A stretch of DNA of 64,000 nucleotides. Origin: Candidatus Angelobacter sp. (GTDB taxonomy: Bacteria; Acidobacteriota; Terriglobia; Acidiferrales; UBA7541). Both the position numbers and the translations under genes were made by a program. Below are positions 19,685 to 39,452 of this stretch, piece after piece. The stretch's first letter is position 1; each line of letters begins with the position of its first letter. The notes below the pieces were generated by a model. That model saw only the letters and a list, made by a program, of their open reading frames with translations. It was not told the origin of the DNA and ran no database searches. The DNA is taken from the NCBI GenBank assembly GCA_035606955.1, contig DATNDO010000043.1, positions 16,080 to 80,079 on the forward strand, given 5' to 3'.

Positions 19685-20029
19685 CTATTTCCCGGTGCGA
19701 TATAGGATTACGCGAACCTTTTCGAGCGTAATCAATCCGCCGCCGACCATCTCATCCAGCCGCGGCAATATCTGCTCGATTCGTTCGTTATATTCCACCA
19801 CTTCGATCACGATGGGAAGGTCCTGTGACAGCCGCAGAATCTTGTCTGTGTGATAAATGCTCGAAGAACCGTAGCCGCCGACGCCGCGCAGAACGGTCAC
19901 CCCTGAGAATTTCTCCGTGCGCAGCATCTCGACAATCGCCTGATAGAGCGGCTTGCCGTGCCAGTGGTCCGATTCTCCAATGTGTATTCGCATCAACGTG
20001 CGCTCGCCTTCGAATCGCTCGTGCGTCAT
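19685..20029 (-). CDS. DUF190 domain protein (commonly fluoride-riboswitch associated)
   Basis: 114 aa. It lies 9 nt downstream of crcB. KPLYQAIVEMLRTEKFSGVTVLRGVGGYG is typical of the family. Confidence 0.8.
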   Translation of the reverse strand: MTHERFEGERTLMRIHIGESDHWHGKPLYQAIVEMLRTEKFSGVTVLRGVGGYGSSSIYHTDKILRLSQDLPIVIEVVEYNERIEQILPRLDEMVGGGLITLEKVRVILYRTGK

Positions 20030-20038
20030 GCGCCCCTC

Positions 20039-20410
20039 CTAAATCGCATCGCCCAGCCGAATCCCCGCCAGCATCACAACCAACCCGAGCAGTACGCTCG
20101 CCGCCACGTACGCCGTTCCCTTCATCCATTCTCCGTCCTCTAACATCCGAATTGTTTCCCAACTGAATGTCGAGAACGTCGTGAACGCCCCAAAAAGTCC
20201 CACCGTCAAACCGATGCGCCAATCCGGCGAAATCGAAACATGATTTAGCGCAAATTTCCCAACCAGCCCCAGCAGAAAACACCCCACCAGATTCACGCTG
20301 AGCGTTCCATACGGGAAGCTCGAGCCTGATCTGTGCTGTACCAAACCCTCGAGACCGTACCGCGCCAGCGTTCCCGCAACACCAAATACGGCGAGTAGCA
20401 ATATACGCAC
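20039..20410 (-). CDS. crcB: fluoride ion channel CrcB/Fluc
   Basis: 123 aa with four TM segments. GAFTTFSTF signature. GTG start. A fluoride riboswitch lies upstream. Confidence 0.9.
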   Translation of the reverse strand: MRILLLAVFGVAGTLARYGLEGLVQHRSGSSFPYGTLSVNLVGCFLLGLVGKFALNHVSISPDWRIGLTVGLFGAFTTFSTFSWETIRMLEDGEWMKGTAYVAASVLLGLVVMLAGIRLGDAI

Positions 20411-21290: not shown

Positions 21291-22661
21291 TTATTTCGAG
21301 GTCACAGCCTGGCGTGTGAAGCGGTCCCATCCTCGGGAGTTCGTCAGCGTGCCGCTTGGCTCTGCCCGCCAGCCGAGTTGAGTGTCAATGCGATCAAATA
21401 CGCTGCGATCCGCGCCTTCCACGCTCAAGCATTCATCTTGAAAGCATCGCAGGTAGGCGTTCCCGAAACTCGCGAACTCCCATCCTTCCGTGACAGGTTG
21501 TTTAACGGCATATTTTTTTTCGAACGCTTCGCTATAAGCGTCGAAGAACTGTGCCGCATCTTTTTCGTTGTCGAGAGCGAGCAGAACTACAAGTATCGTC
21601 TGCTTTGTCTCCTTGTTCTCAAACAATGCGTAACGGTCGCCATGCCACATGGACGCAAAACGCTCCGCTCTGCTCGCATCGATGAATTGTTTCAACACTT
21701 CGCCGAGCGCAAATTCCCCGACTACGTTCTCGTCCAGCTTATTCCAGCCGCGCGGAATTGCCGATTTCAAATCCGGCAACGCAACGATTCGGGGCTTCAC
21801 ATCTTGAAGATACAGACTGGGGTGCAGAATCTGTTGTGTTGAAAGCGGAGGATTCTCAAAGACCTTCTTAAAATCCGGCCAGCCCGAAGTCGCTTTCAAA
21901 AGCTGTTGGGTAAAAACGGCACCATCAAGATAAGGAAACAGCAGTTCGTCACGTATGAACGGCGGCGCTTTCGCGAGCTTCGGGTCCTTGTCCATCTCGC
22001 TTGCGACACCCGATTCGATGAACGGAGCGATATCAGGCACATCGCGGACGCTGGTGTGCATGCCATCCAGGCTGTAATCCATCATGGCCGCCACCGCCGA
22101 ACCCTCGACCACCGCATCCCGCGCCAGCGACGAATCGTCGTTCTCACGCACGGCCTTCTGCCACTTATCGAGATTGAAATACTGGTCGTCAAGGGCATGC
22201 GTGAGCTCGTGCGCCATTACCGGCTTCTGTTCGACAGGATCGATCCAGTCCGCAATGAAAAATTCTTTTTTCTCGGGATCGTACAGCCCTGCGACTTGGT
22301 CGGTCAGCACGTCCAGCAGGAAGGAATCGAGCGGAAATCCCTTGGGAATCAAGCCGAAAGCCTCGAGTGTTCGCTGGTCCGCATACCGTTTCTGCGGTGT
22401 TTCATCCTTTTTCTGCTGCTCGATGAGGTACTGACGAATCTCCGCCTTCGTTCGGATGCTTTTCTTCAAGGAGGATTTCGCAGGCAGGTCCAAAATCTTG
22501 CTCATCACTTCGAGAACTTGGTCGGCCGCAACGAAGAATTCCTCATTGGTCTGGGAATTTGTTTCAGAACTGAAACGAGCCGCGAGCGCAGAGGTCGCGG
22601 CCGTCGTCCCAATGCCCACGGCAAGCACACAAATCAACGCAATCGAGCTCTTGGTTTGCAT
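21291..22661 (-). CDS. secreted putative zinc metalloprotease (HExxH)
   Basis: The signal peptide starts at ATG 22661 (MQTKSSIALICVLAVGIGTTAATSALA). HELTH motif within MAHELTHALDD. Confidence 0.55.
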   Translation of the reverse strand: MQTKSSIALICVLAVGIGTTAATSALAARFSSETNSQTNEEFFVAADQVLEVMSKILDLPAKSSLKKSIRTKAEIRQYLIEQQKKDETPQKRYADQRTLEAFGLIPKGFPLDSFLLDVLTDQVAGLYDPEKKEFFIADWIDPVEQKPVMAHELTHALDDQYFNLDKWQKAVRENDDSSLARDAVVEGSAVAAMMDYSLDGMHTSVRDVPDIAPFIESGVASEMDKDPKLAKAPPFIRDELLFPYLDGAVFTQQLLKATSGWPDFKKVFENPPLSTQQILHPSLYLQDVKPRIVALPDLKSAIPRGWNKLDENVVGEFALGEVLKQFIDASRAERFASMWHGDRYALFENKETKQTILVVLLALDNEKDAAQFFDAYSEAFEKKYAVKQPVTEGWEFASFGNAYLRCFQDECLSVEGADRSVFDRIDTQLGWRAEPSGTLTNSRGWDRFTRQAVTSK

Positions 22662-22880
22662 ATCGCCTCGCTCGGATAGGATGGCAAATGGACGGAAATA
22701 GTTTCCACGTTCTTTTCGCACTTATCAGGAATGCCGCAGACAAGTGGTACGTCGATTAGCAAGAGGCAAGCGATCTTCAGAACTGGCAGCCGCGGTGAGA
22801 CACTACTCTCGCACTTGTATGCGCGACTGAACTGTGCGATAAAGCACTGTTCTGATTTCATAACAAGCTGATAACTTTGC

Positions 22881-22886
22881 TATAAT
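22881..22886 (+). promoter_or_regulatory. possible extended -10 element (TGcTATAAT) for the XRE-like gene
   Basis: The sequence tttgcTATAATttta lies 40 nt upstream of ATG 22927 in an AT-rich spacer. No good -35 element. Confidence 0.3.
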
Positions 22887-22926: not shown

Positions 22927-23667
22927 ATGTTTCCCGGAATCAGCCTTCGCCAAGTTCGCGAGCGTCTCGGGCTAACATACCGGGATGTTGAGCAGGCAAG
23001 CTACGAACTCGCGCAGCGTCACGGCCGCCCGGAATTCATAGTCCACATCAGCCGCCTGGCAGACTTCGAGAATTCGGGCGCAGTCCCGAGTCTACACAAG
23101 CTATTTAGCCTCTGCAGTATTTATCACCTGGACTTGCAGGAAGCATGCAAATGGTATGACGTTCCGCTTGCTGACATTTTCGGTCCTGCCACTTCACAAG
23201 CTCCGCCTCGAACTCACATGGCTGCGCCACCGCGGGTTGTTCGTTTGCCGATTCATTTTGATCCGGCATTCGATCCCAGGCGGACGAGTTACCTTACGCG
23301 CATGGTGGAGAGTTGGGGACATTTCGAGGCGGCAATCCTAAAAAACGGTCACAACTACCATTACGGGTACGTCGGGCAAGACGACCACTGGATGGAACCC
23401 CTACTCCGCCCCGGTGCGCTAGTCCTTGTCGATCCGCAACGACAGAAGGTGGAAACTGGTGGATGGCGCAATGAAGCGGAAAGGCCTATCTACCTAGTTG
23501 ATATCCGAGGTGGTTACCGCTGTTGTTGGTGCCTGATGGAAAAGGGCCGGCTCGTCCTGCAGCCGCACCCTCTTTCCACGAGCGTCCCGGAAGCCTATCG
23601 TTTCCCCGACGAAGCGGAAGTTGTTGGACAAGTGGTCGGCGTGTCTATGCGCTTGGTCGCGGATTAG
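22927..23667 (+). CDS. XRE-family HTH regulator with C-terminal S24/CI-like beta domain
   Basis: The N-terminal HTH reads SLRQVRERLGLTYRDVEQAS. The C-terminus (LRPGALVLVDP...VVGQVVGV) resembles LexA/CI-type domains. I could not place a catalytic Ser/Lys pair by eye. Confidence 0.65.
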   Translation: MFPGISLRQVRERLGLTYRDVEQASYELAQRHGRPEFIVHISRLADFENSGAVPSLHKLFSLCSIYHLDLQEACKWYDVPLADIFGPATSQAPPRTHMAAPPRVVRLPIHFDPAFDPRRTSYLTRMVESWGHFEAAILKNGHNYHYGYVGQDDHWMEPLLRPGALVLVDPQRQKVETGGWRNEAERPIYLVDIRGGYRCCWCLMEKGRLVLQPHPLSTSVPEAYRFPDEAEVVGQVVGVSMRLVAD

Positions 23668-24094
23668 CGTTCTCTTCAGCAATTAGGTCTAGCAAAACGC
23701 CAATATTGGAGCAGAAGAGCTCGCGCAAATAAGATGGGACTCCCGAAGGAATAAGCACGCGGTAAAATTCGTGTTCCTGCCAACGTTCGGCAATCTCGCC
23801 GGTGCGACCGCCGAGGCCCTCCAAGCATTTCCGCAACTCCACTTCCTGCCGTTCGAGCGATGTTTCCAGGATTCTCTCAAAAAGTTCCTGATGGCACACC
23901 CAAAGTGCTTGATGAACCGCCGGTTCGGAATAGATTGTCTCTAAACCTGCGTGTCGGTACCGGCCTGTCCCCATGTCCCGTAACGTCGCGACATGAAGCA
24001 AGCGGCACAGGTCTCCCGGGATTCCCGCAAGTGTAGTCGAGGCGAAATCCTCGATTACGCGATGGTTCTGTTGGAATTCATCCAGCGCTTCCAT
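23645..24094 (-). CDS. hypothetical protein
   Basis: 149-aa ORF with an ATG start. It converges on and overlaps the XRE gene by 23 nt, and is divergent from the repeat-peptide gene. Confidence 0.45.
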   Translation of the reverse strand: MEALDEFQQNHRVIEDFASTTLAGIPGDLCRLLHVATLRDMGTGRYRHAGLETIYSEPAVHQALWVCHQELFERILETSLERQEVELRKCLEGLGGRTGEIAERWQEHEFYRVLIPSGVPSYLRELFCSNIGVLLDLIAEENANPRPSA

Positions 24095-24186
24095 TTTCTA
24101 ACCTGTTCTGCCGTCAGAACATTTCGAACCCGTTGACTCGTGCCGTGCTGCGCGCGTGACACAAACCCCGCAGGAGGTAGTCCACG

Positions 24187-24435
24187 ATGAAACGGGCAAT
24201 CGCTTTGCTTTTTGTTTTTGCGTTGCTGTTGGTGATAGTAGCTCCCTCGGGTTTTGGCGTCAACACACTGGCGGCAAACGCTTCTTCTCATTCGTCCGTC
24301 TGGGCCGATGGCGGCGCTCCCATCCCACCATTTCCCGATATTTCACGTTCGGACTCGACTGTGCGCTTCTGGGCTGACGGTGGAGCTCCCATTCCACCGT
24401 TCCCGGACATACCGCCTTCGTTTACCGGCGTCTAG
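24187..24435 (+). CDS. small secreted protein with two identical WADGGAPIPPFPDI repeats
   Basis: AGGAGG lies 9 nt upstream of the ATG. Signal peptide MKRAIALLFVFALLLVIVAPSGFG. The two 14-aa repeats are identical in protein but differ at 10 synonymous sites in DNA. Confidence 0.65.
   Translation: MKRAIALLFVFALLLVIVAPSGFGVNTLAANASSHSSVWADGGAPIPPFPDISRSDSTVRFWADGGAPIPPFPDIPPSFTGV
24301..24342 (+). repeat. peptide repeat copy 1 (WADGGAPIPPFPDI)
   Basis: tgg gcc gat ggc ggc gct ccc atc cca cca ttt ccc gat att. Confidence 0.9.
24370..24411 (+). repeat. peptide repeat copy 2 (WADGGAPIPPFPDI)
   Basis: tgg gct gac ggt gga gct ccc att cca ccg ttc ccg gac ata. Confidence 0.9.
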
Positions 24436-24510
24436 TTTTGAGGACCGCTACGCGCTCTGGGGTGCCTTGTAGTAAACGTCACCTAGATGGTAAAGTGCAC
24501 CCCGGAGCGT

Positions 24511-25290
24511 ATGAACCTTTCCTTATTCGACTCGGTATATTGGGCCGCCACTGCATTCCTCGAAGTCGGGGTCTTCTGTCTAGCCTTGCGCCGAAGGCTC
24601 TTCACGCGACTGCCGTTCTTTACACTTTATCTCGGTTTGGTGGTCGCCGACGAAGCTCTCCTGTGGTTAACCTACCGTTTCATCGGAATCAGGTCACGCA
24701 TTTCATACGATGTTTATTGGACTTCGCAGGCGCTCTTGGTTCTCTCTCGCGCAGTGGTGGTATACGAGATTTGCCGGGCGCTTCTGCTGCCCTTTGCAGG
24801 GATCTGGAAACTCTGTCGTCCCCTCCTCGTTGGACTGGGATTGATTCTAGTTGCGAGCGCCCTGGCAACGGCCCGCCGGACGGTACACCCAATTTCTGCC
24901 ACCACGATTATGGCCGATCGAGGCTTGGAGTTCACCGTCGCTAGTGTTTTGCTTTTCGGGCTTATTTTTTGCCGATATTACCGCGTTGAGATTCCGCGAC
25001 ACTTGGCGTGGATTGCGCTTGGACTGGGGTTCTATTCGGCGATACAGGTTGCCAACAACACATTCTTAGGCGACTGGCTTACGCAGCAGCATTTCATGGT
25101 TTGGGGAGCGTTGCGTCGCGCGTCCTTCAACATCGCCACGCTCTTGTGGCTCGTGGCGCTATGGAAGCCGCTTCCCGCTGCGGCGCCTGCACCTGTCTTG
25201 CTCGCGCGCGGTGAATATGAGATTTTGGCGCCACAGGTCAGTGGGCGCCTTCGTGAACTGAACGCCCGGCTCTTGGAGATATGGAAATGA
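24511..25290 (+). CDS. polytopic (about 7 TM) membrane protein, unknown function
   Basis: About seven hydrophobic segments by eye and an amphipathic C-terminal tail. The start is ATG 24511 or ATG 24487. Confidence 0.55.
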   Translation: MNLSLFDSVYWAATAFLEVGVFCLALRRRLFTRLPFFTLYLGLVVADEALLWLTYRFIGIRSRISYDVYWTSQALLVLSRAVVVYEICRALLLPFAGIWKLCRPLLVGLGLILVASALATARRTVHPISATTIMADRGLEFTVASVLLFGLIFCRYYRVEIPRHLAWIALGLGFYSAIQVANNTFLGDWLTQQHFMVWGALRRASFNIATLLWLVALWKPLPAAAPAPVLLARGEYEILAPQVSGRLRELNARLLEIWK

Positions 25291-25838
25291 TCGTGTTCGT
25301 GGCTGTCTTGGTTGCGCTGGCAATTCTCCTCGGTCTCGTGTGGCTGCTGTTCGGCTCGCAGCGCAGTGCGCCAACTCCAACTATCGGAGATCTCCAGATC
25401 GAAAGGGTCCTTCCAGTAAACTGCCGGCATTTTCCGCAGATCAGCCAGTTGCTCAGCCAGGAAGACATTCAATTCATGCGTGAGCGAACGCCGCGTCACA
25501 TTCAGACTAAATGGCGTGCTGAACGCCGCAGCATCCTCAAACAATATCTAAGCGGACTGCGGCAGGACTTCGGGCGTCTCGAGCGACTGGCACGCCTGAT
25601 CGCTGCACTCTCTCCCGAAATCCGCAAACGACAAGAATGGGAGTGGTTTTGGCTCGTTCTACAATTCCATTTTTCGTATCGGATAATCGCATTGAAACTT
25701 GCTCTTGGCAGTTTTTCTCCGGAAGGACTGGCCGGACTTACGGAGATGATTGCCGGGTTGACCACCGAGTTGGAGAATCGCATGGCCCTGATCGCGGAGC
25801 ATTCTCCCTCGCGCATGCGCACGAATGCTGCGGGATGA
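25287..25838 (+). CDS. single-pass membrane protein, unknown function
   Basis: ATG 25287 overlaps the upstream TGA (ATGA), with GGAG 8 nt upstream. N-terminal TM segment IVFVAVLVALAILLGLVWLLF. Confidence 0.5.
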   Translation: MIVFVAVLVALAILLGLVWLLFGSQRSAPTPTIGDLQIERVLPVNCRHFPQISQLLSQEDIQFMRERTPRHIQTKWRAERRSILKQYLSGLRQDFGRLERLARLIAALSPEIRKRQEWEWFWLVLQFHFSYRIIALKLALGSFSPEGLAGLTEMIAGLTTELENRMALIAEHSPSRMRTNAAG

Positions 25839-25963: not shown

Positions 25964-27043
25964 TTGCCTGGGGAAAAGATTCTCGTCTGTGACGATGAAG
26001 AAGCGATTCGAGAGGTCGTTTCCACCCTCCTCGAAGCCCAGGGGTACCGCTGCACGGTTGTGCCCGACGGTTTTCAGGCCATGCAGGAAATCAAGAATGA
26101 CTCGCACGATCTCGTCCTCAGCGACATCGTAATGCCAGAAATGGACGGTATGCGACTGTTGCGACAGGTCCGCTCACAAGATGAGGACATTCCAGTCATC
26201 ATGGTCACCGCGATGCACGACATCTCTATCGCGCTGGAAGCAATTCGCGCCGGAGCTTACGATTACATTCTGAAACCCTTCGAGAAGGATCAGCTTTATC
26301 ACAGCGTTTCGCGGGCTCTGGAGCATAGGCATCTTGTCCTCGAGAACCGTTCCTACCAGCAAAACCTCGAGCACCTCGTCGCCGAACGCACCCAGCAGCT
26401 TTCGCTAACCCTGCGGGACCTTGAGCAATCGTATGACTACACCCTCGAAGCGCTTGGCGGGGCGCTTGACGCGAAAGACGCCGAAACAGAAGGGCACTGC
26501 CAGCGCGTGACCGCGATCACGATCCTCATCGCGAAAATCATGAAAGTCGAACGCGACCAGTTGCGACACATCGCCCGCGGCGCTTTCCTCCACGACATCG
26601 GAAAAATGGGAATCCCCGACCAGGTTCTGCGAAAGCCTGGCCCGCTCACGGATGAAGAACGTCTGCTCATGCGGCGCCACTGCGATATCGGCTACACCGT
26701 CCTGAACAAGATTCCCTTTCTAAAAGACGCAGCCGAAATTGTCCTCGCGCACCAGGAATGCTACAACGGGAGCGGTTACCCGCGTGGTTTGAAAGGCGAA
26801 GAAATTCCCCTTGGAGCCAGAATATTTGCCGTGGCTGACACGCTCGATGCCATGTGTTCCGACCGGCCATACCGCAAGGCTTTGCCGATTTCGGCGGCTC
26901 GCGACGAAATCAAAAAGTTCTCCGGAACGCAATTCGATCCCCGCGTTGTGTCCGCGTTTCTTTCCAAACCGGACGAATTCTGGACCGAACTTCGCAAGAA
27001 CATCGGCGACCCATTCAGATATCTGACAATGGATGAAAGCTAG
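25964..27043 (+). CDS. response-regulator receiver domain fused to HD-GYP phosphodiesterase domain
   Basis: TTG start with TAGGAG upstream. Receiver motifs DDEE...D...MPEMDG...K. HD-GYP motifs HDIGK and GSGYPRGL. Confidence 0.9.
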   Translation: MPGEKILVCDDEEAIREVVSTLLEAQGYRCTVVPDGFQAMQEIKNDSHDLVLSDIVMPEMDGMRLLRQVRSQDEDIPVIMVTAMHDISIALEAIRAGAYDYILKPFEKDQLYHSVSRALEHRHLVLENRSYQQNLEHLVAERTQQLSLTLRDLEQSYDYTLEALGGALDAKDAETEGHCQRVTAITILIAKIMKVERDQLRHIARGAFLHDIGKMGIPDQVLRKPGPLTDEERLLMRRHCDIGYTVLNKIPFLKDAAEIVLAHQECYNGSGYPRGLKGEEIPLGARIFAVADTLDAMCSDRPYRKALPISAARDEIKKFSGTQFDPRVVSAFLSKPDEFWTELRKNIGDPFRYLTMDES

Positions 27044-32771: not shown

Positions 32772-32858
32772 TGGTGCGGTCGAGTGGATTCGAACCACCA
32801 CGGTATTGCTACCGTCAGCCCCTCAAGCTGATGCGTCTGCCAGTTCCGCCACGACCGC
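32772..32858 (-). tRNA. tRNA-Leu (anticodon GAG)
   Basis: GCGGTCG-TG-GCGGAACTGGCAGACGC-A-TCAGC-TTGAGGG-GCTGA-long variable arm-GGTGG-TTCGAAT-CCACT-CGACCGC-A-CCA. The cloverleaf was folded by hand. CCA is encoded. Confidence 0.9.
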
Positions 32859-39378: not shown

Positions 39379-39452
39379 TGGAGCGGCCGAGGGGACTCGA
39401 ACCCCCGCCTACAGCTTGGCAAGCTGTCGTACTACCCCTATACTACGGCCGC
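39379..39452 (-). tRNA. tRNA-Gly (anticodon GCC)
   Basis: GCGGCCG-TA-GTAT-AGGGGTA-GTAC-G-ACAGC-TTGCCAA-GCTGT-AGGC-GGGGG-TTCGAGT-CCCCT-CGGCCGC-T-CCA. The cloverleaf was folded by hand. Confidence 0.9.

Follow-up and report, generated by a model that had tools for sequence, protein, structure and literature searches.

Why should a small gene encode one and the same peptide twice, in two stretches of DNA whose silent sites have drifted to saturation? The question is raised by a 64,000-nucleotide (nt) stretch of Candidatus Angelobacter sp. (assembly GCA_035606955.1, contig DATNDO010000043.1, positions 16,080 to 80,079 of the forward strand; this whole stretch is called the window here, and coordinates without a locus label refer to it), in which an open frame at 24187..24435 (+) translates into the 82-amino-acid (aa) product MKRAIALLFVFALLLVIVAPSGFGVNTLAANASSHSSVWADGGAPIPPFPDISRSDSTVRFWADGGAPIPPFPDIPPSFTGV, followed by a gene for a seven-transmembrane (7-TM) protein that we call TM7. 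Public databases list a protein identical over all 82 aa, annotated as hypothetical, from a Candidatus Angelobacter metagenome-assembled genome (MAG; P0002). As a first-pass annotation of the window had reported, the translation contains WADGGAPIPPFPDI twice, at 24301..24342 (+) and 24370..24411 (+), and the two copies differ at 10 of their 14 codons, always at the third base and always synonymously. The copies are spaced 23 codons apart, and the residues around them are unrelated in register. At every codon of the unit, a random base change has a chance of at most 0.33 of being silent, which gives p ≤ 1.5e-5 for ten silent changes out of ten, and an all-synonymous outcome was found in 0 of 200,000 simulated change sets; chance is therefore excluded for the window copies. 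Independent draws from the codon usage of the window would lead to 8.0 differing codons, compared to the 10 observed (P(≥10) = 0.19), and silent sites between the two copies are fully saturated. As this difference is not significant, we rejected selection for DNA dissimilarity between the copies.

We also considered whether the opposite strand might be the coding one. An antisense open reading frame (ORF) at 24288-24410 (MSGNGGMGAPPSAQ...ISGNGGMGAPPSAQ) likewise gives two identical repeats, here of 13 aa, because third codon positions coincide in that frame, and third-position changes are silent in both the sense and the antisense frame. However, antisense frames contain 1-9 stops in many orthologs, none of them is open throughout all orthologs, and the longest open antisense stretch in the window measures 47-53 aa, whereas the sense ORF has its ATG, a conserved GGAGG, a signal peptide and, always, an in-frame stop across about 60 loci. 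The antisense ORF was thus rejected as the true coding strand, and we regard the chance that it is coding as negligible. On the sense strand, the strong ribosome-binding site that had been noted earlier is indeed present as a Shine-Dalgarno (SD) sequence, AGGAGG (24172..24177, +), 9 nt 5' of the ATG, and its GGAGG is invariant among 25 aligned loci. The first 24 aa (24187..24258, +; MKRAIALLFVFALLLVIVAPSGFG) have the features of a Sec signal peptide, namely a positively charged N-terminus ahead of a hydrophobic core, with Pro at position -5 and small residues at positions -3 and -1; from the -3/-1 rule, read by eye, we infer that signal peptidase I cuts after GFG (aa 24). This would release a mature peptide of 58 aa (24259..24435, +, with the stop codon), which by translation is Pro/Gly-rich and net acidic (5 Asp, 2 Arg), is not amphipathic and has no PRP motif.

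How widely is this design shared, and what does selection maintain in it? A protein search returned 29 relatives of the peptide, and contig scans of genomes and metagenomes gave 13 and 47 loci, respectively, all of them from Acidobacteriota MAGs or soil metagenomes. Both the SD sequence and a signal peptide are present in every member (29 protein homologs and about 60 loci). The family's signal peptides, whose Sec-type features are kept throughout as the earlier prediction of a signal peptide would have it, end in GFG, SFS, GFS, SIG, AIS or TSG, after which a conserved VN follows. Mature peptides carry one to six copies of a unit with the consensus Φ-[W/L/V]-A-D-G-G-x-P-x-P-P-Φ-P (one example is VWADGGAPIPPFPDI), and the linkers between copies span 3-13 residues, with a hydrophobic residue before the unit as their only common feature; no processing site or conserved cleavage motif is recognisable beside the units across the family's linkers. 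Copies within a gene are identical in protein, whereas units vary between genes at x6 (A/S/T/G), x8 (I/V/A/P/M) and Φ11 (F/L/W/V). Over the 10-aa core, adjacent copies show 572 synonymous versus 2 non-synonymous codon differences (133 pairs in 53 distinct genes, which are phylogenetically non-independent; the copy pattern skipped copies altered at fixed D/G/P positions, of which a few exist). In other words, the repeat is not evolving freely among its relatives, and the exact peptide unit is under strong purifying selection, as had been proposed from the window gene.

The first-pass annotation had further held that the silent divergence rules out recent duplication or gene conversion. This stands for the window gene itself and fails for its relatives. 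Because the DNA divergence between copies runs from 0 to 9 of 10 codons across the family, the family combines recent copy events with very old copies, the latter being found in the window gene and in the four- to six-copy genes of one distant group. Loci L021 and L031, with three and four copies, have identical TM7 genes and zero DNA differences between copies, and a difference of one copy was also found in the pairs L019/L020 and L008/L030. In L001, which comes from a near-identical genome, the gene matches that of the window exactly over its first 88 nt, and about 24 differences then follow within 100 nt; its copy 1 carries the 3' half of copy 2, an intragenic conversion tract. Single-copy members exist as well (L012, L033, L062, L063 and L066), and bivalency, which had been suggested as one possible role of the two copies, is not essential.

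Two observations concern how such genes are found. A pattern scan of 596 Gb also returned FWADGGMPVPPTPD from Thiohalocapsa sp. ML1 (L013, 6082-6160), which we rejected as a chance pattern match: the reading frame that holds it precedes the gene of an ABC-type substrate-binding protein, and neither an ORF with a signal peptide nor a TM7 gene accompanies it. At L065, a 118-aa three-copy peptide gene (2084-2440, +) is uncalled in the public record, which instead lists a 76-aa ORF of the other strand (2173-2403). Peptide genes of this kind are likely under-annotated in general.

What, then, could require the exact sequence of the unit? The gene that follows, TM7 (24511..25290, +), encodes a stand-alone 7-TM protein of 259 aa when read from ATG 24511, which is probably its start and gives it the length of its homologs. 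In the 13 genome loci, the gene order is the same: a gene for an HExxH protein (-), HTH_246 (+; an XRE-type helix-turn-helix regulator), up149 (-), the peptide gene (+), TM7 (+) and sp185 (+; a single-pass membrane protein), with a REC-HD-GYP response regulator gene (+) and then a peroxiredoxin-like gene (+) 3' of sp185. Synteny within a close clade could stem from shared ancestry alone, and variable-number PxPPxP repeats are typical of spacer or ruler proteins; the Pro-rich repeats might accordingly form an extended polyproline-II segment in the periplasm that has no specific partner, with the adjacency of TM7 reflecting clade synteny. The distribution of divergence along the locus speaks against this. 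Between loci, DNA identity amounts to 85-93% in the flanks, 76-89% in the signal-peptide part, 60-73% in the mature peptide, 64-69% in TM7 and 78-83% in sp185. A sliding identity comparison with L007 and L019 places the approximate limits of this divergence island at 24217..25420 in the window; relative to loci with close flanks, it covers the mature peptide, an RNA hairpin and TM7 and reaches about 130 nt into sp185. Since the proportion of synonymous differences (pS) is saturated in TM7 (0.68-0.75) and low in flanking genes (0.26-0.48), the island is older than its surroundings, and not merely faster evolving.

The same island is visible between loci that are otherwise nearly identical. In L018 and L019, the helix-turn-helix regulator, up149, sp185 and response regulator proteins are 98-99% identical, whereas TM7 is 64% identical and the peptides contain WADGGSPVPPFPDL three times (S-V) and WADGGAPVPQFPPG five times (A-V-Q), respectively. 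Their DNA is 97-100% identical as far as the intergenic stretch that precedes the peptide gene, 45-80% through the peptide gene and the TM7 bundle, and 98-100% again from about 55 codons before the TM7 stop, which leaves the cytoplasmic tail within the conserved flank; four further locus pairs show this island too. The flanks of L022 group with L021, but its TM7 (83%) and WADDG core group with L027. Likewise, the flanks of L023 group with L008 and L030, but its TM7 (81%) and S-V core go with L002, L004 and L018. Identity matrices show that TM7 type tracks peptide type and not the flanks, and loci whose flanks are close hold seven peptide types or more. Peptide and TM7 bundle are alleles that diverged long ago, are inherited together and are exchanged as a cassette between loci.

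The pairing also extends far beyond the close clade. In metagenome loci L032-L061, whose TM7 proteins are 24-33% identical, a peptide gene of the same design lies directly upstream, and this was also the case in all four of the distant TM7 homolog loci with upstream DNA, where the units are VADGPGPQPPLPP (L062), VADNNNPVPPWP (L063), IADGPGPTPPPPPPGN in three copies (L065) and SADGGPTPPPPWP (L066). A spacer without a partner would need neither the exact identity at the x positions nor the 572:2 ratio; it leaves unexplained the co-segregation of peptide and TM7 against their flanks, their shared recombination island and the pairing kept at such low TM7 identity in rearranged loci, and it sits poorly with single-copy members. 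We strongly disfavour it and consider it very improbable.

We reasoned that these patterns would be accounted for if the peptide and TM7 were a ligand-receptor pair for signalling or self-recognition, a reading that we prefer while giving it slightly less than an even chance. If all copies must fit one receptor, their protein sequence would be held constant even as silent sites in the DNA become saturated; if there is one receptor per allele, different alleles would have different but internally uniform copies; and if recognition is direct and allele-specific, peptide and bundle would travel together. In the mechanism that we envisage, the Sec-exported pre-peptide would lose its 24-aa signal peptide and become a disordered, Pro-rich, net acidic peptide, whose repeat unit would bind the downstream TM7 as an allele-specific ligand, either on the intact peptide or as cleaved single units. 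The variable, periplasm-facing part of the TM7 bundle would read the x and Φ positions. A released signalling or effector peptide and a precursor with several cores, both put forward in the first-pass annotation, are still the leading readings.

Does TM7 look like a receptor? The first-pass annotation had it as a 7-TM protein followed by a translationally coupled single-pass protein, and an AlphaFold2 (AF2) model (pLDDT 80) indeed has seven TM helices and a C-terminal helix (residues 233-258). With 10 Lys and Arg residues inside versus 3 outside, the charge bias argues for an N-out, C-in topology with the C-terminal helix in the cytoplasm. TM7 has 162 close homologs, and a profile search found 1,426 clusters at 50% identity, nearly all of which are stand-alone proteins of 255-273 aa. 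Within a 49-sequence alignment, variability drops from the presumed periplasmic face towards the cytoplasm (Spearman -0.34, p 2e-8), and no part of TM7 is better conserved than its C-terminal tail. Ratios of non-synonymous to synonymous differences (pN/pS) are 0.17-0.30 overall, 0.23-0.42 for the outer side of the protein, 0.12-0.29 for its inner side and 0.05-0.24 for the tail; being below 1 in every part, they give no support to positive selection on TM7.

The downstream gene, sp185 (25287..25838, +), overlaps the TM7 stop in an ATGA and, judging from this overlap, is translationally coupled to TM7; conserved synteny and the island tie these genes functionally to the peptide. Its AF2 model (pLDDT 74) consists of one TM helix and a cytoplasmic three-helix bundle. 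The peptide, TM7, sp185 and up149 have no match in Pfam, NCBIfam, PADLOC or PHROGs, with nothing at E ≤ 0.1 for TM7 and sp185 in Pfam and NCBIfam, the AgrB family included, and sequence searches of the PDB with HTH_246, up149 and sp185 returned nothing. Foldseek found no significant match in the PDB for the TM7 model (best E = 0.22 with a TM-score of 0.40; all TM-scores ≤ 0.46), and for the sp185 model it returned generic helical bundles without significance. Known 7-TM folds, including G protein-coupled receptors (GPCRs), microbial rhodopsins and 7TMR-DISM proteins, gave no significant sequence or structure match for TM7. A 464-aa protein (P0289; L067, 75-1469) matches the TM7 profile over residues 1-174, after which HAMP, HisKA and HATPase_c domains follow; this kinase fusion is a weak hint that the TM7 bundle can act as a sensor.

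Within its helices, TM7 has invariant polar or charged residues (E18, Q73, R80, E140, Y156 and Y157) and near-invariant cysteines (C88 and C154), and these could form an active site. TM7 might in that case be an intramembrane enzyme that matures the peptide, as AgrB does with AgrD, with the receptor encoded elsewhere; AgrB and AgrD co-vary in the agr hypervariable region, and the linkers would need cutting if single units are released. However, TM7 has no AgrB, CPBP/Abi, rhomboid, PrsW or other peptidase match in Pfam or NCBIfam, the peptide, having a Sec signal peptide itself, does not depend on a dedicated exporter, the units have no conserved flanking cleavage motif in linkers that vary from 3 to 13 aa, and the module conserves no other candidate receptor. 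We consider a substrate-enzyme pair improbable.

If TM7 is instead the receptor of the peptide, their relative amounts might be set by an RNA hairpin (24452..24510, +) that lies after the peptide stop codon, whose 3' arm ends at the TM7 start codon and which is also found in 13 other loci. It has a dG of -35.9 kcal/mol (z -3.7). Over its 14 pairs, 88.7% of alignment cells are paired, compared to 34-46% in slid controls, and compensatory changes occur at 8 of the 14 pairs, a number reached by 5 of 500 shuffles. Rfam has no family for the hairpin or its surroundings. The hairpin would lead to much peptide and little membrane protein. The loop (GTAGACGTAACCGACATCGAAATGGTATAGTG in most loci) is more conserved than the stem, and the window and L001 are without 6 nt of it. 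A promoter in the loop (TAGACG-18-TATAGT in most loci) was rejected, as those 6 nt belong to its spacer.

Which further genes belong to the system? Near distant peptide/TM7 pairs, HTH_246, up149 and the single-pass gene recur in altered order (L057, L060, L063 and L065). HTH_246 homologs with 30-58% identity stand beside the peptide and TM7 genes in distant loci, and a single-pass counterpart of 183-215 aa lies 3' of TM7 in L057, L063, L065 and L066. A five-gene module, consisting of XRE regulator, up149, peptide, TM7 and coupled single-pass protein, is thus recurrent in distant Acidobacteriota, and the peptide gene and TM7 form a two-gene specificity cassette within it. In the window, HTH_246 (22927..23667, +) matches only HTH_31 and HTH_3 (XRE type) in Pfam (HTH_31 at E = 4.8e-5, below the curated cut-off); its C-terminal domain of about 170 aa is uncharacterised, with a weak match of residues 156-241 to the phrog_4 repressor family (E = 0.005). 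A LexA/CI-type S24 nature found no support, as Pfam shows no Peptidase_S24 and BLASTP against E. coli LexA (a manually entered sequence) gave E = 1.9. The 149-aa protein up149 (23645..24094, -), also without a PDB match, is paired with HTH_246 in all close loci; the two genes converge with a 23-nt overlap (23645-23667), a layout that is the same in distant L057, L060, L063 and L065.

Candidate targets of the regulator lie at both ends of this gene pair. Between up149 and the peptide gene, the perfect palindrome TGTTCTGCCGTCAGAACA (24104..24121) is the sole perfect TGTTC-N8-GAACA within the window, and in an intergenic alignment of 25 loci the strongly conserved blocks besides the SD sequence and the start codon are TGTTC and GAAC only. 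A second, operator-like palindrome, TGTTCTGATTTCATAACA (22848..22865), has one mismatch to TGTTC-N8-GAACA and overlaps a -35/-10-like site of the HTH_246 gene (22857-22886); a site of this type is found about 80 nt 5' of the regulator gene in every close-clade locus holding that gene. Both palindromes are conserved across the close clade and absent from distant loci, where the regulators are 30-39% identical; we take them to be candidate operators of HTH_246. In the proposed mechanism, the conserved TM7 tail and sp185 would relay the signal inwards to the XRE regulator and up149, and the regulator would act at the palindromes before its own gene and before the peptide gene. Such a loop would serve autoinduction or self-recognition, and its specificity groups would be comparable to 'pherotypes'.

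An autoregulated repressor whose own gene and the peptide gene are both preceded by operator-like sites also fits the main rival reading, namely a toxin-immunity pair with signalling, in which the peptide would be a weapon against non-kin and TM7 would neutralise the cognate peptide; the conserved tail of TM7 may also sequester the repressor and thereby induce immunity. Polymorphic toxin and bacteriocin loci classically have this layout, in which a conserved N-terminal export signal precedes a variable C-terminal part, a variable membrane protein is encoded next, and the whole is exchanged as a cassette. Tandem TM7 paralogs behind a single-copy peptide gene (L063, 2147-2926 and 3001-3798; L062, 600-1412 and 1474-2121; and L064), with nearly identical cytoplasmic tails and diverged bundles, resemble extra or orphan immunity genes. 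In the Sdp system of B. subtilis, the polytopic SdpI binds the Sec-exported SdpC and sequesters the autorepressor SdpR (PMC2910880), and our locus would share with it a Sec-exported peptide, a polytopic protein that recognises and signals, and an autorepressor. Unlike Sdp, TM7 is not of the SdpI family in Pfam, the regulator is XRE-type and not ArsR-type, and the peptide is acidic, Pro-rich and repetitive. The layout of a small peptide with a signal peptide (by eye) and a membrane gene would match a Sec-dependent class II-like bacteriocin, but a net acidic, Pro/Gly-rich, non-amphipathic peptide is unlike membrane-active bacteriocins or cationic proline-rich antimicrobial peptides; with its Asp and Arg content and without a PRP motif, we rejected an assignment to the apidaecin, oncocin or Bac7 type. 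Furthermore, the allelic changes are conservative and within one motif and do not bring in different toxin domains, an export route across the outer membrane is not evident, and a simple immunity function needs neither the conserved coupled single-pass protein nor the conserved tail. We think a toxin-immunity pair unlikely, if less so than an enzyme and its substrate.

Several points also weigh against a ligand-receptor pair. The periplasmic loops of TM7 are very short, its output domain is not recognisable, and its Foldseek matches to 7-TM receptors are those non-significant ones given above. As Acidobacteria are diderm, Sec export would take the peptide no further than the periplasm, and a route across the outer membrane is not evident, for which reason a cell-autonomous or contact-dependent role fits better than classical quorum sensing. 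Extracytoplasmic faces are more variable in membrane proteins generally, and because pN/pS never exceeds 1, the outer side included, diversifying selection is not demonstrated, only old alleles and recombination. Tandem TM7 paralogs after one peptide gene (L062 and L063) would, by analogy, be more typical of immunity genes, and both toxin-immunity and substrate-enzyme pairs predict the same pattern of co-inheritance. Finally, the kinase fusion P0289 is known from a single 1.7 kb metagenome contig, where a chimeric assembly is possible.

Does the locus belong to any system described before? In agr (AgrD, AgrB and the sensor half of AgrC), as well as in comCD and comQXP, the peptide gene and the membrane part of its partner likewise form a sharp-bordered hypervariable island, with one border inside the partner gene so that its cytoplasmic part is conserved, and with old alleles exchanged between lineages. 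This feature, a hypervariable island over the peptide and the membrane part of the partner that co-vary as specificity groups, is present here. In contrast to agr, TM7 has no homology to AgrB or to histidine kinases, the peptide is a tandem repeat that carries a Sec signal peptide and lacks the Cys needed for a thiolactone, and the host is a diderm Acidobacterium and not a Firmicute. No AgrBDCA-type kinase with a cognate response regulator is found in the module, and the REC-HD-GYP gene (25964-27043) has no kinase next to it.

In precursor form, the closest likeness would be to the fungal alpha-factor, whose precursor has a signal peptide, a short pro-region and tandem identical copies of 11-14 aa with spacers, in a copy number that varies between relatives, and whose receptor is a 7-TM protein (PMC10182648). 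The likeness covers precursor form, variable copy number and the 7-TM partner, and the receptor Ste2 is the top Foldseek match of TM7, at the non-significant E of 0.22. Here, however, the spacers have no dibasic Kex2-type sites, and ligand and receptor genes are adjacent in the same cell. To our knowledge, bacteria moreover lack G proteins. The resemblance to Ste2 would be at most that of a generic seven-helix bundle, a convergence.

Precursors of ribosomally synthesized and post-translationally modified peptides (RiPPs) with multiple cores, such as the cyanobactin precursor PatE, likewise have several short cores, a conserved N-terminus and variable core sequences. Unlike in these, the conserved module here holds no maturase, protease or transporter of any class, and the N-terminus is a Sec signal and not a recognition leader. 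In line with the first-pass annotation, which recognised no RiPP maturase nearby, none of the seven neighbouring proteins is a RiPP maturase or a RiPP recognition element (RRE) protein in Pfam or NCBIfam. Taken by analogy, the locus would be closest to agr and pherotype loci in population genetics, to alpha-factor in precursor form and to Sdp in circuit logic; as far as membership can be defined by sequence features, it is a member of none of these systems, since every such feature that we tested failed.

Two neighbouring genes are not counted in the module, because they are absent from distant loci. The HExxH protein (21291-22721, -; 476 aa, with a signal-peptide-like N-terminus and an HELTH motif) is the only protease-like neighbour of the peptide gene and scores 101 bits against the NCBIfam Hvo_1808 family surface protein model (cut-off 200); as its synteny is limited to the close clade, we rejected it as a dedicated peptide protease. 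The REC and HD-GYP response regulator (25964-27043, +; TTG start) is 92-100% conserved across close-clade loci and is a probable phosphodiesterase of cyclic di-GMP. We rejected it as the output of the system, as it was found in no distant locus, including L057, L063 and L065, which reach past the single-pass gene; the link to cyclic di-GMP that had been suggested earlier is correspondingly weak. Elsewhere in the window, a fluoride riboswitch (RF01734; 20468-20529, -; 55 bits, E = 1.4e-12) is followed 3' by a 123-aa membrane protein gene (20039-20410, -), which from reading its translation we take to be CrcB-like, and a 114-aa ORF (19685-20029, -). The Rfam scan also found tRNA genes at 39382-39452 (-) and 32775-32858 (-).

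What would the locus mean for Acidobacteriota, which are among the most abundant and least tractable of soil phyla? Most known cassettes that pair a peptide with its receptor in specificity groups come from Firmicutes (agr, com) and fungi; we know of nothing comparable described for Acidobacteriota, and our searches of the literature gave no relevant result, whether for the motif, for this combination of features or for a similar system in the phylum. It is possible, though we find it doubtful, that Acidobacteriota have here a native system of self/non-self recognition or autoinduction that works through peptides and is built from parts without known relatives. Such a system would consist of a Sec precursor with tandem identical pheromone units, similar in this to the fungal alpha-factor precursor, a kinase-free 7-TM receptor of GPCR-like topology, a coupled single-pass transducer and an XRE regulator, and would exist as many old, recombining 'pherotypes'. 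The components are new even if their role is that of toxin and immunity, and public annotation overlooks these peptide genes, as the L065 case illustrates. If our preferred ligand-receptor reading is true, the locus would represent a new and widespread bacterial 7-TM family whose peptide partner is defined, a library of orthogonal peptide/7-TM pairs provided by nature, and a clean case of identical protein repeats that are kept by selection and not by homogenisation of their DNA.

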